NCBI GenBank assembly: GCA_964348525.1
Contig: CAYGCY010000002.1
Location: forward strand, 9,726-73,725
DNA from: an uncultured Candidatus Saccharibacteria bacterium
GTDB lineage: Bacteria > Patescibacteriota > Minisyncoccia > Phycocordibacterales > Zambryskibacteraceae
DNA length: 64,000 bases
Reading direction: 5' to 3'
Shown: piece by piece, positions 8,951 to 62,022 of the stretch
How positions within the stretch are numbered: position 1 is the first letter of the stretch
How the letters are laid out: each line of letters begins with the position of its first letter
Position numbers and translations under genes: made by a program
Notes under the pieces: generated by a model
Database searches by the model: none
Seen by the model: the letters and a program-made list of their open reading frames with translations, nothing else
What the model was told of the DNA's origin: nothing

Positions 8951-8957
8951 CCTACAA

Positions 8958-8990
8958 ACAAAAACCCGCGCTTAGCGCGGGTTTTTGTTT
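8958..8990. terminator. Bidirectional rho-independent terminator
   Basis: aaaaacccgcgcttagcgcgggtttttgttt: perfect GC stem flanked by A- and T-runs, between convergent genes. Confidence 0.85.
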
Positions 8991-25892: not shown

Positions 25893-25915
25893 TATAGTTA
25901 TATATCCTACAGCGG

Positions 25916-25974
25916 AAATATTACTTTCAAAAGCATTGGTAACCTTCTGACGCTTGCTTTTGAAAGCAATATTT
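25916..25974. promoter_or_regulatory. 20-bp near-perfect inverted repeat with 19-nt spacer, 24 nt upstream of grpE: candidate heat-shock operator
   Basis: aaatattactttcaaaagca (25916-25935) against tgcttttgaaagcaatattt (25955-25974), 19/20 complementary. AT-rich, no U-run. Does not match CIRCE, HAIR or the CtsR box. Confidence 0.45.
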
Positions 25975-25986
25975 TCGCGATTGTCC

Positions 25987-33254: not shown

Positions 33255-33308
33255 GAATAAATTTTTCCAGCGAAAAATTTTGCTGTCTCTCAGTTTTTTA
33301 AAGTAAAG

Positions 33309-33405
33309 AGCCCCGTGAGATACCAGAGGACGAGTGGTGTTTGCCTTTTAGGAGCGCGGTATATCTCTCCGTGAAGGCAAATACCCGAGTCCTTATCTCA
33401 CGGGG
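33309..33405. repeat. Long imperfect hairpin with conserved apical loop (element copy 1) in the udg-alaS intergenic region
   Basis: Nested stems gccccgtgagata/tatctcacggggt and ggtgtttgcctt/aaggcaaatacc. Apical loop ttaggagcgcggtatatctctccgtga is shared with the copy at 61401-61426. Confidence 0.5.
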
Positions 33406-33465
33406 TCTTGACTTACCTATGCTGAAAAACTTCCGAGACGAACAGTATAAATAAGACTCGTTTTG

Positions 33466-39325: not shown

Positions 39326-39343
39326 TTACTTTCAAATTATAAC

Positions 39344-39374
39344 AAAAAATCCCCGTATATACGGGGATTTTTTG
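39344..39374. terminator. Bidirectional rho-independent terminator
   Basis: aaaaaatccccgtatatacggggattttttgtt. Confidence 0.8.
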
Positions 39375-40439
39375 TTATTTGTTACCTAGGAAGTGGTATT
39401 TACCCTCTTTGTCTCTTTTAAAGAATTTTGGGTTCTGAAGATTAACCAATATAGTATTTTCTTTTACGTATCTTTCCTTCAAAACTTTCTCGATTATTTT
39501 ATCCTTTGGAAGTGGTCCGCTCTTTTCAATGATAGACACTATTACATCTTTTACCACCCCTGGAGCATATCCCCACTCTTTTAGAGCATAGAGCCCTCTA
39601 CCTACCAACACAAAACGAGCATCTTTAATCAGTTCGTTGTGAGTAGTAGCAACGTGTGCGCGCTTATTGAAATATGTAGTAATAGCTTTGGCAACATCTC
39701 TAAAGTGGATGGGCGACCCGTGCTTGCGTATAACAAGATATGCATAATCTCTGATGCCTTTTGCCTTTACATTTGAAGAAGAAGTTTTGCCCCATTCTCC
39801 TAGAGGGTTTTTCCCTACTTTGTGAGAAAGGTTGAGCCAACGCCTTATTATTTCGTCCTGTTTGTATTCGTCTGAAACATCTTTTACATATTCCAAAAAC
39901 TTTTTTACTAGTTCTGATTCTGGCACAAGCTCACTGTCGTCTAGAGACACATAGAGTTTTTCCAAAGCAGAATGCACATTTTTAGCGAGATTTTCATCTA
40001 TATGCCATCTGTGTCTAAACTGTTCGTCTTCTTTTTCCTTTGTGAAATGCTCACCTAAAACTAATAGGAAATGTATAAAATTTTGACTTGACTGGTCGCT
40101 ACCAAGCTCATCTAAAAGCTCTTGATGAACTATTATTCCGCCAAGTTTTCTCAAAACATTTTTTAGTTCTTCAAATACTTCGGATTGTTTTGTATATTCC
40201 TTTGATTTACGGATATTGTTTAGAGAATATTCGTCTATCTGACGAACTCTTTCACGAGTGATCCCATACTTTTTGCCTATGGCTTCAAGGGTCATTGGTT
40301 TTGTCTCTCCACCTAACCCATATCGCTTTGTAACGATGTCTCTCGCCCTCAACGGCAATACCGAAAGAAGCTGTTTAGTGACCTGTTTTGGCTTGAAATT
40401 TAGCTTTATTTGAGCCTTTTTTGCTGTTTTTGATGACAT
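39375..40439 (-). CDS. Sigma-70 region-4-like HTH protein with C-terminal HARE-HTH-like domain
   Basis: N-terminal LTLEAIGKKYGITRERVRQIDEYSLNNIRK (sigma region 4.2-like). C-terminal GRGLYALKEWGY resembles HARE-HTH / RpoE-delta. Confidence 0.5.
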   Translation of the reverse strand: MSSKTAKKAQIKLNFKPKQVTKQLLSVLPLRARDIVTKRYGLGGETKPMTLEAIGKKYGITRERVRQIDEYSLNNIRKSKEYTKQSEVFEELKNVLRKLGGIIVHQELLDELGSDQSSQNFIHFLLVLGEHFTKEKEDEQFRHRWHIDENLAKNVHSALEKLYVSLDDSELVPESELVKKFLEYVKDVSDEYKQDEIIRRWLNLSHKVGKNPLGEWGKTSSSNVKAKGIRDYAYLVIRKHGSPIHFRDVAKAITTYFNKRAHVATTHNELIKDARFVLVGRGLYALKEWGYAPGVVKDVIVSIIEKSGPLPKDKIIEKVLKERYVKENTILVNLQNPKFFKRDKEGKYHFLGNK

Positions 40440-40519: not shown

Positions 40520-42799
40520 CTAAATTATCAGATTTATTATCCTTCCCGGAACATAAATTCGCCTCTTTACTGGGCTAGAAATATATTTTTTCAATTCCTC
40601 ATTTTTCTCTATCTTTGAGGCTATTTCTTCCTCTGTATCTGTATTTTTTATATCTATCACCCCTCTAAATTTCCCATTTATTTGGACAGAAATTTTCACA
40701 ACACTGCTTTCTGAGACTTTTTGAGCAATAGGCCACTCTGATTGGTGTATTGATCCTTTCATACCAATTTTCTGCCAAAGCTCTTCGGCTATGTGTGGCG
40801 CAAAAGGGGCGAGCACTTGCAAGAATCTTGCGAAATTTTTCTGAGGAATCTCTTTTTCTTTTTCTAATGCATTCGCGCAAATCATTAATTGAGATATTGC
40901 AGTATTGAAAGACATTTCTTCAATATCATTACCAACTTTTTCAATTGTTTTCTCAAAAACACTTGAACTAGTCATTGATGACATTTCAATATTTTTTACC
41001 TTTTCAGCAAGTACGAAAACTCTTTCCAAAAATCTCCTCGGACCCACGATGCCATCCTGTGACCAACTAACTGCCTGCTCAAATGGACCAATAAACATTT
41101 CATATAGGCGCAATGTGTCTGCTCCGAATTTTTTTACTATGTCGTCTGGGTTTATCACATTCCCCCTAGATTTGCTCATTTTTTCTCCACCGGAAGCTAA
41201 AATCATTCCGTGAGAAGTTCTTTTTGTGTAGGGCTCAGATGTTGGGACTAACTTTTGATCATATAAAAATTTATTCCAAAAACGAGAGTAAAGGAGGTGA
41301 AGCGTGGTGTGCTCCATCCCTCCGTTATACCAGTCAACAGGTTGCCAATATTTTAATTTCTCAATATCTGCAAATAATTTAGAATTCTTGGGGTCTATAT
41401 AACGTAAGAAATACCAGCTTGAACCCGCCCAGTTTGGCATTGTGTCGGTCTCCCTTTTCGCGAAACCTTTACATTGCGGACACTTCACATTTACCCATTT
41501 AGAAACGCTCGCTAGTGGTGACTCCCCCGTATCTGTATAGGTATACTTTTTAACTTTAGGAAGTTTTACAGGTAAATCTTTTTCTGGTACTGGCACCGTT
41601 CCACATTTATCACAATGTATTACTGGAATTGGCTCTCCCCAATATCGCTGTCTTGAAAAAACCCAATCACGAAGTTTAAAACGAGTAATTTTTTTGCCAA
41701 AATCTTCAAAACCTGCTTTTTCGTAATCTTTAACAATTGGTAAGTTGTATTTTTGGGCAAATTCATTATCTCGCGCATCATCAGATGGCACAGCCATAAT
41801 TGCTCCTGTGCCGTAATGAGGTAAAACATAATCTGCAATCCATATCGGAACTTCTTCTTTGTTGGCAGGATTGATTGCTTTTACTCCTTTTAATTCAACC
41901 CCTGTTTTTTGCTTCCCTTCTGATGTTCTTTCTATTTCTGTCTTCTTTCTAGATTGAGCAATATAATTTTCAACCTCTTCCCTGTTTGTAATTGCTAAAC
42001 TTTTAACAAGCTCATGCTCCGGCGCCAGTACCATATATGTCGCGCCAAAAATAGTATCTGGGCGAGTAGTGAAAACTTTTATTTTTAATTCATTATTCTT
42101 TATTCCAAATTCTATTTCTGCACCTTCGCTTTTTCCTATCCAATTTCTTTGTTGAATTTTTACTCGTTCTGGATAATCCAACGTCTCTAAATCATCGTGC
42201 AGGCGCTCTGCGTATTTTGTGATGGCAAGCATCCATTGTTCCTTTTCTCTTTTTTCTACCGGTGTACCGCACCTTTCACATTTCCCATCAACTACCTCTT
42301 CATTTGCTAAACCGATTTTGTCTTGTGGACACCAGTTAATTTCCGATTTTGCTTTGTATGCAAGTCCGTGTTTAAGAAGTTGCAGAAAAATCCACTGTGT
42401 CCATTTGAAATATTTTGGATCTGTCGTATTTACTTCGCGCGACCAGTCAAAAGAAAGCCCTAGGGACTGCATCTGTTTTCTGAAATTTTTTATATTCTTC
42501 TTTGTGGTTACTTCGGGATGTATGCCTGTTTTTACGGCATAGCTTTCCGCGGGAAGACCGAAGGCGTCCCAGCCCATTGGATAAAGCACGTTTTTGCCCT
42601 CCATTCGCCTCTTACGAGCCACTACATCAAGAGCTGTATAGCTTCGTACATGCCCCACATGAAGACCATCGCCGGACGGATACGGGAACTCAACAAGGAT
42701 GTAGCTTTTGTCCCCTGATTCCTTGGCTCTATATAGTTTTTTAGAATCCCAATACTTTTGCCACTTTTTCTCTATTTTTAACGGGTCGTATTTACTCAT
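40520..42799 (-). CDS. leuS: Leucyl-tRNA synthetase
   Basis: HIGH-type motif (HVGH) and KMSKS. 759 aa. Confidence 0.9.
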   Translation of the reverse strand: MSKYDPLKIEKKWQKYWDSKKLYRAKESGDKSYILVEFPYPSGDGLHVGHVRSYTALDVVARKRRMEGKNVLYPMGWDAFGLPAESYAVKTGIHPEVTTKKNIKNFRKQMQSLGLSFDWSREVNTTDPKYFKWTQWIFLQLLKHGLAYKAKSEINWCPQDKIGLANEEVVDGKCERCGTPVEKREKEQWMLAITKYAERLHDDLETLDYPERVKIQQRNWIGKSEGAEIEFGIKNNELKIKVFTTRPDTIFGATYMVLAPEHELVKSLAITNREEVENYIAQSRKKTEIERTSEGKQKTGVELKGVKAINPANKEEVPIWIADYVLPHYGTGAIMAVPSDDARDNEFAQKYNLPIVKDYEKAGFEDFGKKITRFKLRDWVFSRQRYWGEPIPVIHCDKCGTVPVPEKDLPVKLPKVKKYTYTDTGESPLASVSKWVNVKCPQCKGFAKRETDTMPNWAGSSWYFLRYIDPKNSKLFADIEKLKYWQPVDWYNGGMEHTTLHLLYSRFWNKFLYDQKLVPTSEPYTKRTSHGMILASGGEKMSKSRGNVINPDDIVKKFGADTLRLYEMFIGPFEQAVSWSQDGIVGPRRFLERVFVLAEKVKNIEMSSMTSSSVFEKTIEKVGNDIEEMSFNTAISQLMICANALEKEKEIPQKNFARFLQVLAPFAPHIAEELWQKIGMKGSIHQSEWPIAQKVSESSVVKISVQINGKFRGVIDIKNTDTEEEIASKIEKNEELKKYISSPVKRRIYVPGRIINLII

Positions 42800-50406: not shown

Positions 50407-50446
50407 ACAAAAAACCGTTCACTAGCTAGTGAACGGTTTTTTGTAT
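50407..50446 (+). terminator. Perfect hairpin terminator
   Basis: aaaaaaccgttcactagctagtgaacggtttttt. Confidence 0.8.
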
Positions 50447-61146: not shown

Positions 61147-61302
61147 ATGAGACCTTTCTGTTTAGCAATGGCCTTGGCTATGGCCTTTTCAGTAGTTGTG
61201 TTCACCGACCCACTTAAATCAACTGGAACACTTGCTGGTGGCCTCGCTGGCATAATTTATGCTGTGCTCTATGTTGGTATAGCCATCAAAGAAAAGAAGT
61301 AG
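61147..61302 (+). CDS. Small two-TM peptide (51 aa)
   Basis: MRPFCLAMALAMAFSVVVFTDPLKSTGTLAGGLAGIIYAVLYVGIAIKEKK, with own promoter, SD and terminator. Confidence 0.35.
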   Translation: MRPFCLAMALAMAFSVVVFTDPLKSTGTLAGGLAGIIYAVLYVGIAIKEKK

Positions 61303-61318
61303 CCCAAACCGCACACAT

Positions 61319-61362
61319 GAGCGCCACGTGATACATCACGTGGCGCTTTTCGTTTGTTTTTT
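61319..61362 (+). terminator. Hairpin + long T-run terminator
   Basis: agcgccacgtgatacatcacgtggcgcttttcgtttgtttttt. Confidence 0.8.
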
Positions 61363-61377
61363 CTCCTACCGCTTCCA

Positions 61378-61449
61378 ATTAAGTAAATTAAAAGGCTCGT
61401 TTAGGAGCGAGGTTTATCTCTCCGTGACGAGCCTTTTAATTTACTTAAT
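61378..61449. repeat. Hairpin element copy 2: 23-bp perfect stem with the conserved 26-nt apical loop
   Basis: attaagtaaattaaaaggctcgt / acgagccttttaatttacttaat. Loop ttaggagcgaggtttatctctccgtg, about 90% identical to the loop at 33347-33372. Confidence 0.5.
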
Positions 61450-61455
61450 ACTGTC

Positions 61456-62022
61456 TTATTTTACTTTCACCAATTCCACCTCAAACAAAAGTGTTGAGTT
61501 TGGAGGAATGCTTCCTGCTTGTTGGTCACCATACCCAAGCTTTGGAGGAATAACTATCTTTCTTACAGAACCTTCCTTCATTCCAGTCACGCCTATATCA
61601 AATCCCTGTATTACTTTTCCCGAACCAATAGTGAAAACTAACGGCTCACCGCGCACTCTCGATGAGTCAAATTTGGTGCCATTTGTCAGCACTCCCTCAT
61701 AGTGCACAGCAACGGTATCACCGGCTCGTGCTTCCCTACCTGTGCCTACCTTTACATCTATAATACCTACCTGATTATCTGGAATGTTTTGAATGTTTTC
61801 TATATTGTCTGTGCTCATATTTGGTTGGTTACTTTCTTCTGTAGTTGGTAATGCGAAATTAATGCTTGAAGTATTCTGCGTGGCATCACTTACAGGCTGT
61901 TTTGCCTGAATCTCTGAAAACCTGCTAACTATAGGAGACCAAACTCCCTGCCAAAAAACATAACCAATAACTACTAAAGAAACTGATATAGCAACCCAAG
62001 TGCGTGAATGTATATTTTGCAT
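61456..62022 (-). CDS. FKBP-type peptidyl-prolyl cis-trans isomerase, membrane-anchored
   Basis: N-terminal TM. FKBP domain VAVHYEGVLTNGTKFDSS...LLFEVELVKV. Confidence 0.85.
   Translation of the reverse strand: MQNIHSRTWVAISVSLVVIGYVFWQGVWSPIVSRFSEIQAKQPVSDATQNTSSINFALPTTEESNQPNMSTDNIENIQNIPDNQVGIIDVKVGTGREARAGDTVAVHYEGVLTNGTKFDSSRVRGEPLVFTIGSGKVIQGFDIGVTGMKEGSVRKIVIPPKLGYGDQQAGSIPPNSTLLFEVELVKVK

Follow-up and report, generated by a model that had tools for sequence, protein, structure and literature searches.

A low-copy family of terminator-like palindromic hairpins with a conserved apex and variable arms in a subclade of Minisyncoccia

Bacteria of the CPR/Patescibacteria have tiny genomes with very little non-coding DNA, and to our knowledge almost nothing is known of their cis-elements or mobile DNA. 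Elsewhere, several classes of small palindromic elements have been described. The REP, BIME and REPIN elements of enterobacteria and Pseudomonas are short intergenic palindromes that lie mostly 3′ of genes and share their transcripts. They influence transcription termination and the stability of the mRNA, differ from strain to strain and are often paired. In REPs the arm sequence and a 5′ GTAG are conserved, copies number in the tens to hundreds, and a RAYT transposase is needed. Correia, ERIC and bacterial MITE elements are hairpin-forming non-coding insertions beside genes that can serve as terminators and RNase III substrates, and they show presence/absence polymorphism, nesting and decay. 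MITEs carry conserved terminal inverted repeats, are flanked by target-site duplications and have a related autonomous IS. Integron attC sites are structure-defined hairpins at gene 3′ ends that are orientation-specific and exchanged as cassettes. Their R and L boxes at the stem base and their extrahelical bases are conserved, not the apex, and an integron integrase and a cassette array are needed.

The hairpin family described here shares some of the traits just listed with each of these classes and has the defining features of none of them. It is a small intergenic palindromic repeat or terminator hairpin, and its conserved tip on variable arms is unusual. Compared with REPs, it has unrelated arms, a conserved centre and about two copies per genome, and no RAYT gene was seen; since the arms are not conserved, GTAG is missing and the representative MAG holds two exact matches, a REP/REPIN identity was rejected. 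A classical MITE was rejected because the arms differ at 22 of 24 paired columns, no target-site duplication was seen and the copy number is low. Compared with attC, the copies lie near core housekeeping genes in conserved synteny and have no base-of-stem boxes. TIGR-Tas systems also combine variable palindromic stems with conserved loop motifs and are placed in "phage and parasitic bacteria" by the abstract of their description (PMC12045711). TIGR loops have two variable 8–12-nt spacers between 2–3-nt box C/D motifs and are arrayed by a Tas (Nop-domain) gene (PMC12045711). The loop of our family is instead conserved throughout, and its copies are solitary or paired beside housekeeping genes. 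A TIGR stem-loop array was rejected, with no array, no variable loop spacers and no Tas gene in the Pfam lists of all neighbourhoods.

The window (the whole 64,000-nt stretch of DNA analysed) comes from a tiny groundwater CPR/Minisyncoccia bacterium. A sequence-only reading of it had pointed to two related hairpins, called copy 1 and copy 2 here. The perfect 23-bp stem that it claimed for copy 2 is present: positions 61378–61400 and 61427–61449 form an inverted repeat, with no strand assigned, around the 26-nt loop TTAGGAGCGAGGTTTATCTCTCCGTG. Arm 1 (ATTAAGTAAATTAAAAGGCTCGT, 23 nt) is A/T-rich in its outer part and GC-richer in its inner part (GGCTCGT). Its sequence is unlike the arms of all other copies, with pairing nonetheless retained. 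Arm 2 reads ACGAGCC and then UUUUAAUUU, which is the U-rich tract of a terminator in either direction. The 26-nt apex module occupies 61401–61426, and judging from its orientation relative to the upstream genes it probably belongs to the minus strand. On the FKBP-sense strand it reads CAC GGAGAGAUAAACCUCGCUCC UAA. Its 20-nt core (61404–61423) contains the inner GGAG/CUCC mini-helix, whose pairing had also been proposed and is present in every predicted fold of both copies. As RNA, copy 2 folds at −42.3 kcal/mol on the plus strand and −38.0 kcal/mol on the minus strand (z = −9.3 and −9.0), and none of 200 shuffles folded as well. Copy 2 is a real, lineage-specific, non-random hairpin.

The hairpin lies 6 nt from the stop codon of an FKBP-type peptidyl-prolyl isomerase gene (61456..62022, minus strand, PF00254). 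Convergent on this gene is a 51-aa hydrophobic ORF (61147..61302, plus strand), whose plain intrinsic terminator (61319..61348, plus strand) is the same in strain L027; L-numbers (L001–L049) denote the related or matching loci and contigs compared with the window. A small ORF at the position of the 51-aa ORF is called in L029 and is not called in L020.

The loop of copy 2 is found once more in the window, at 33348–33373. The two loops had been described as the same; they match at 24 of 26 positions, so that the loop recurs with two mismatches. In 100 dinucleotide shuffles of the window, the expected number of second loop copies was 0. This second loop is the type 1 apex of copy 1, a two-tier hairpin of ∼97 nt (33309..33405, minus strand) with the outer stem CCCCGTGAGATA/TATCTCACGGGG. 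The apex of copy 2 is of type 2. Copy 1 lies between the genes for a family-4 uracil-DNA glycosylase (UDG, PF03167) and AlaRS, and its fold reaches −63.7 kcal/mol on the plus strand and −54.7 kcal/mol on the minus strand. Both copies had been placed immediately downstream of a gene, which is right for FKBP and less so for UDG, whose stop codon is about 60 nt away. The stem sequences of the two copies are unrelated, and their orientation is the same, as had been noted.

Copy 1 is flanked by a second conserved palindromic element, which we call element B. Its halves (33283–33308 and 33406–33443, no strand assigned) together form an imperfect palindrome of ∼80 nt (GCTGTCTCTCAGTTTTTTAAA...AAAAACTTCCGAGACGAAC). 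Without an insert, element B is found in L029 (5206–5282) and L030 (866–942). In the window, the 97-nt module hairpin is nested at its tip, so the apex tops a nested, multi-tier hairpin of ∼100 nt. Both the locus and the orientation of element B vary between genomes, and both orientations occur. The contigs L036 and L037 stop within element B, just short of the position of the nested hairpin. Logan and ENA contigs from the same organism as the window encode the same proteins; two of them break at the hairpins or close by, and the Logan contig L001 ends inside the loop of its copy. Short-read (Logan) contigs thus stop in or at long palindromes, and such elements are probably under-represented in MAGs. 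Because they break short-read assemblies, the palindromes mark strain-level recombination hot spots that MAG pipelines tend to miss.

To count the family, the core was scanned with its two variable positions left free (18 specified bases) against 185,579 species genomes. This gave 19 matches, with ∼17 expected by chance (1.2e12 strand positions / 4^18), and the majority were random matches in GC-rich coding sequence. The exceptions were two matches in one Minisyncoccia MAG, JBAQOA01 (L008 and L020), the only exact matches in the entire MAG. Each has the complete 26-nt loop on a new perfect stem. A metagenome scan contributed L024 (two copies), L026 (two copies) and L027. In total the family has nine copies at about five loci of related Minisyncoccia assemblies, which are independent assemblies from NCBI, ENA, JGI and Logan. 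One copy lies between UDG and AlaRS (window), three lie between FKBP and TGT (window, L027 and L020), and one lies between MAP and NDK (L008), with a stem that overlaps the stop codon. Two adjacent copies (L024a and L024b) follow gyrB, and two adjacent copies in opposite directions (L026A and L026B) follow RNase J. Conservation of the loop thus extends to further gene 3′ ends (UDG, MAP and RNase J, and near gyrB), and neither chance similarity of the loops nor a lack of enrichment at gene 3′ ends was found.

A covariance-model search of 205 kb for divergent members gave no additional copies. Family copies were absent in the relatives L028–L033, L038 and L042. The family is confined to a subclade of Minisyncoccia, and its copy number is low. 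In Rfam 15 at the gathering threshold, tRNAs alone passed in the window, and the hairpins matched no family in 11 related loci. Permissive Rfam scans of both copies and of family C, a second family described below, gave only sub-threshold matches to miRNA precursors, which are typical of long hairpins. Neither of these conserved-apex families was found in viral contigs, and the family was not described in the literature that we searched. The Pfam lists of the copy neighbourhoods show housekeeping genes and no recombinase, integrase, HUH, transposase or reverse transcriptase genes.

Some matches outside the family were rejected. In an Acidobacteriaceae MAG the exact 20-nt core is present in at least four identical copies, each on a stem of 9 bp (L017 2457–2494; L006, L011 and L021). 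All of them fall within the coding region of a group II intron reverse transcriptase, at its C-terminus (WERYTALLRRHP). In three homologous ltrA genes the same protein motif is spelled by unrelated nucleotides that form no hairpin, and a group II intron origin was rejected. Since the homologous introns have neither the sequence nor the hairpin, and about one chance 20-mer match is expected in the database, the acidobacterial match is judged a coincidence. The scan matches L023 and L025 are also chance matches; L025 is a coding repeat with a 72-nt period, probably of leucine-rich repeats.

Across the family the apex is conserved and the arms are not. In seven copies (L008, L020, L024b, L026B, L027 and the two window copies), 24 to 26 of the 26 apex positions are identical, and in L026A the 20-nt core alone is identical. 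A loop-anchored ungapped alignment shows 17 invariant positions in the core. The arms are 19–23 bp long and are semi-conserved only over the ∼6–7 bp beside the loop. Both sides have changed at 22 of 24 pairs, and none of 500 shuffles reached the observed values; sliding the alignment register halved arm pairing. Among 181 arm pairs, 164 are Watson-Crick, and 14 of the 17 mismatches are of the transition type. A tally of G-U wobbles across the arms gave no strand preference (9 against 5, not significant). The apex itself is predicted to form a 3×3 internal loop, a GGAGAG/CGCUCC helix with A-G mismatches and a loop of 6–8 nt. Two subtypes occur. Type 1 is GCGCGGTATAT, usually with CTCAT/ATGAG inner arms, and type 2 is GCGAGGT[T/A]TAT, usually with CTCGT/ACGAG inner arms. 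Both subtypes are present in each genome sampled, and adjacent pairs consist of one of each type.

The build of the arms is that of the plain terminators of this genome, with an A-tract, a GC-richer stem of 7–8 bp beside the apex and a U-tract. In 7 of the 8 intact copies, 5–8 U are found within the 10 nt after the inner stem in both directions. The inner 8 bp with the apex reach −15 to −22 kcal/mol, comparable to plain terminators here (−18 to −24), and the position after the stop codon is also that of a bidirectional intrinsic terminator. A stable GC stem with a U-tract is therefore present in these 7 copies, whereas the short, unconserved loop of an intrinsic terminator is not. Plain terminators here have unconserved loops of 3–8 nt on arms of 9–17 bp, whereas the family has a conserved 26-nt apex on arms of 19–23 bp. 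A terminator scan (loop 3–8) did not call the copy 2 hairpin. In ∼290 kb of related DNA, hairpins with arms of at least 18 bp and loops of at least 19 nt belonged only to this family or to family C. These results show a family of terminator-competent palindromic hairpins with a conserved, structured apex. The earlier proposal of a lineage-specific terminator or RNA-stability element with a conserved loop was thus partly right: the hairpin is terminator-competent in both directions, and the conserved loop is found only in the Minisyncoccia subclade. A riboswitch or attenuator with a terminator-embedded aptamer was rejected, as 19–23 perfect base pairs (about −40 kcal/mol) are not plausibly switched by a ligand.

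Ordinary terminators of the genome are perfect palindromes with arms of 13–22 nt (window 8956–8990, 39339–39378, 50407–50444 and others). Being palindromic with matching A-tracts and T-tracts, these are bidirectional by design.

At five sites, one and the same apex strand lies on the sense strand of the upstream gene and reads CAC-GGAGAGAUA(U/A)ACC(G/U)CGCUCC-UAA. In L026, one copy has the sense orientation relative to RNase J, and its neighbour may have it relative to an ORF that enters from the contig end. The opposite directions of these two copies argue against a purely replication-linked orientation. As L024a and L026B are ambiguous, the orientation bias is suggestive only.

Strains were compared at the FKBP and UDG sites, the orthologues of MAP, NDK, RNase J and gyrB being absent from the window. 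In L027, FKBP is 98% identical to that of the window and the neighbouring plain terminator is identical base for base. The segment from FKBP to this terminator has been replaced: its hairpin has other arms and the other apex subtype, and a further palindrome is present. The latter, a perfect palindrome TGTACAAGGTGGAACCTCG-GCGTA-CGAGGTTCCACCTTGTACA at about 345–387 of L027, adjoins the module hairpin and is missing from the window. In L020, FKBP is about 74% identical (aligned part), and the module stands on yet other arms. More distant relatives have at this site element B, terminators of other sequence or a plain terminator whose arms are similar. The plain terminator of L031, AAAATGGCTC-tatt-GAGCCATTTT, is the one with similar arms. 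At the UDG site, L034 matches the window at 100% along ∼700 nt of the flanking genes and has a family C hairpin instead, as has L038 (∼75–85% identical). L036 (∼95% identical) starts with the element B allele of the window, and its contig ends before the position of the module hairpin. In L042 the gap is 10 nt long and holds no hairpin; other content is found in L040 and L049. The replaced block extends from the UDG stop codon to the extended −10 element (TGnTATATT) before AlaRS, which is the terminator slot. A before/after pair for the nested insertion was sought at this site, and a third, unrelated allele was found instead. Thus, the cassette is replaced or absent in near-identical strains. 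Decay was also seen: L024a has 4 changes in the 20 core positions and a broken stem. Both L024 copies lie between the plain terminators of two convergent genes. The MITE-like element that the sequence-only reading had offered as an alternative therefore holds in part. Replacement or absence in near-identical strains, nesting, decay and pairing agree with it; the unconserved arms, the lack of a target-site duplication and the low copy number do not.

Family C shares the design of the FKBP/UDG hairpin family, a conserved apex on variable arms. Both families turn the usual pattern of bacterial palindromic repeats around, in that the tip is conserved and the arms vary. Family C has a conserved loop of ∼21 nt (GAGCGACGAAAGGTCACCAAT) on covarying arms of 18–20 bp and is always in sense after a gene. 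The single window copy (25912–25978, minus strand) has 20-bp arms and a 19-nt loop related to GAGCGACGAAAGGTCACCAAT. Other copies were found in L034 (1533–1591), L038 (10601–10659), L042 (721–779 and 7250–7308), L036 (664–722) and the YceG–MnmA gap of L049. This last site, from YceG to MnmA, is a clean presence/absence polymorphism, and the window lacks the element there. In the alignment 96.5% of cells are paired, 9 of 19 pairs have changed on both sides, and none of 500 shuffles reached the score. On both sides are 6-nt direct repeats (TCGCTC), whose complement GAGCGA stands at the start of the loop. Having no U-tract, family C is not a canonical terminator.

What copy 2 does can be read in more than one way. 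Tentatively, and with a confidence that falls just short of even, we favour a palindromic cassette of low copy number, mobile or recombining, that sits in terminator slots and ends transcription there. Copy 2 would then terminate FKBP transcription and block convergent read-through. The cassette, or the apex with about 7 bp of inner stem, would be copied or exchanged between terminator slots, and the family would persist in this way. The route might be insertion at the single-stranded tip of terminator palindromes, homologous recombination between strains, or both. The apex would be the part recognised by a putative trans-acting factor, and the cassette, like REP or Correia elements, would be selfish in origin and serve as a terminator where it landed. 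We prefer this reading to a host docking element because copies are dispensable, some are parked at positions of presumably low transcription, and the arms look young, being nearly perfectly paired with sequences unrelated between copies. In favour of mobility, alleles at the UDG site do not follow strain relatedness; one copy is nested (in element B), one is decayed (L024a) and others are adjacent pairs (L024 and L026); and the L031 plain terminator with similar arms resembles an empty site. The two subtypes with their linked inner-arm variants, the terminator competence and the restricted distribution also speak for this reading. Against it stand the very low copy number, neighbourhoods of housekeeping genes with no transposase, recombinase or reverse transcriptase, and the possibility that the allele swaps could be ordinary homologous recombination around an immobile element. 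No target-site duplications were seen on inspection of the sequence around the nine copies.

The simplest model for unrelated but perfect arms would be insertion of the apex into the tips of existing terminators. It is inferred, as no filled and empty sites with the same arms were found, and it draws on three points only: the terminator-like build of the arms, the empty site in L031 and the nested position of copy 1 in element B. Further, though we think this unlikely, the ∼26-nt apex, possibly with about 7 bp of inner stem, may itself be mobile, as a "loop cassette" that inserts into the tips of terminator palindromes. This would account for constant centres on arms that are perfect but unrelated, for the nested copy in element B and for the repeated occupation of slots. 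If it is true, family C is a second example, and CPR bacteria have a previously undescribed targeting of miniature elements or a new class of hairpin-tip-directed enzyme. More generally, a mobile module that targets tips would be a new insertion strategy with terminators as safe havens.

A possible but less probable explanation is a host-selected RNA element, in which the hairpin is both 3′-UTR and terminator and the apex is a strand-specific docking site for a trans-acting protein or RNA. Such a factor would control 3′-end processing, stability or termination, and could be a double-strand RNase that takes its position from the loop, in the way that AGNN tetraloops guide yeast Rnt1p; the arms would then vary freely while about two helical turns stay paired. 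If the tip is such a docking site, it points to a new factor of these organisms that binds RNA or DNA. Host selection is supported by the conservation of the apex across genera, at 24–26 of 26 positions between genomes with UDG and FKBP proteins of 85% and 74% identity and with diverged arms, and by the strong covariation of arm pairing (22 of 24 pairs, 0 of 500 shuffles). The uniform arm length of 19–23 bp sets the family, with family C, apart as a distinct class among hairpins in ∼290 kb. No sampled genome lacks either apex subtype, three lineages have the FKBP site occupied, the sense strand reads the same apex strand at five sites, and in L026 the two copies, which lie between seemingly convergent genes, point in opposite directions. 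Conservation of the apex across genomes with orthologues 74–85% identical and the occupied FKBP site in three lineages fit host selection at least as well as mobility. However, single copies are dispensable, since strains with identical flanks have no copy or a different hairpin. The L024 copies follow plain terminators, at positions where transcription is expected to be low, and one of them is decayed. The wobble-pair tally shows no strand preference, the orientation rule comes from about five independent sites with two ambiguous cases, and there is neither an Rfam family nor a known candidate binding factor. The mobile-cassette and host-function readings are not mutually exclusive; REP and Correia elements are both selfish and functional.

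An improbable reading is that the apex works as DNA, as a protein-binding or recombination site. It can be written as an imperfect inverted repeat TTAGGAGCG / CTCTCCGTG around a central GGTWTAT, has the size of a tyrosine-recombinase core site or a dimeric operator, and would be presented single-stranded at the tip of an extruded hairpin, as in integron attC, IS200/IS605 ends and HUH-nuclease origins. The two variable positions are indeed central, with invariant outer half-sites; as part of a hairpin, the apex would be exposed as single-stranded DNA, and exchange at gene 3′ ends is cassette-like. The half-sites, however, match poorly (about 6–7 of 11), genes for a recombinase, an integrase or an HUH enzyme are missing from the neighbourhoods examined, a spacer of 26 nt makes cruciform extrusion from duplex DNA less favourable, and the conserved base-of-stem boxes of attC are absent. 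Rather more improbable is an independent sRNA gene on the plus strand of the window, antisense to its neighbours, in which case the hairpin would by itself be a structured sRNA. Both copies do fold slightly better on the plus strand (−63.7 against −54.7 for copy 1, −42.3 against −38.0 for copy 2), where four internal mismatches in intact helices would be G-U, against one on the other strand. These mismatches are all simple transitions, though, within an overall tally that is not significant (9 against 5). No promoter-like site lies upstream on the plus strand at copy 2, and several hairpins start 0–6 nt from the upstream stop codon, which fits co-transcription with the gene. That these are ordinary terminators with loops alike by chance or by recent local duplication is effectively refuted. 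The genome-wide scan of 18 specified bases did return about the chance number of matches (19 against ∼17), but hairpin-embedded matches are limited to AT-rich contigs of the Minisyncoccia type and share all 26 nt, no second window copy arose in any of the 100 shuffles, and the copies come from independent assemblies.

Two further features were observed in the compared loci. A palindrome AACGAGCTCT...AGAGCTCGTT with loops of 12–40 nt lies 3′ of tgt in three genomes (L020 991–1023, L028 12281–12312 and L031 6014–6077). LeuRS is 924–964 aa long in L038 (752–3526) and L042 (822–3716), with internal matches to alpha/beta-hydrolase Pfam families. In the window (40520..42799) and L040 (1203–3485) it is 759–760 aa long, and the longer form looks like LeuRS with a lineage-specific inserted domain.
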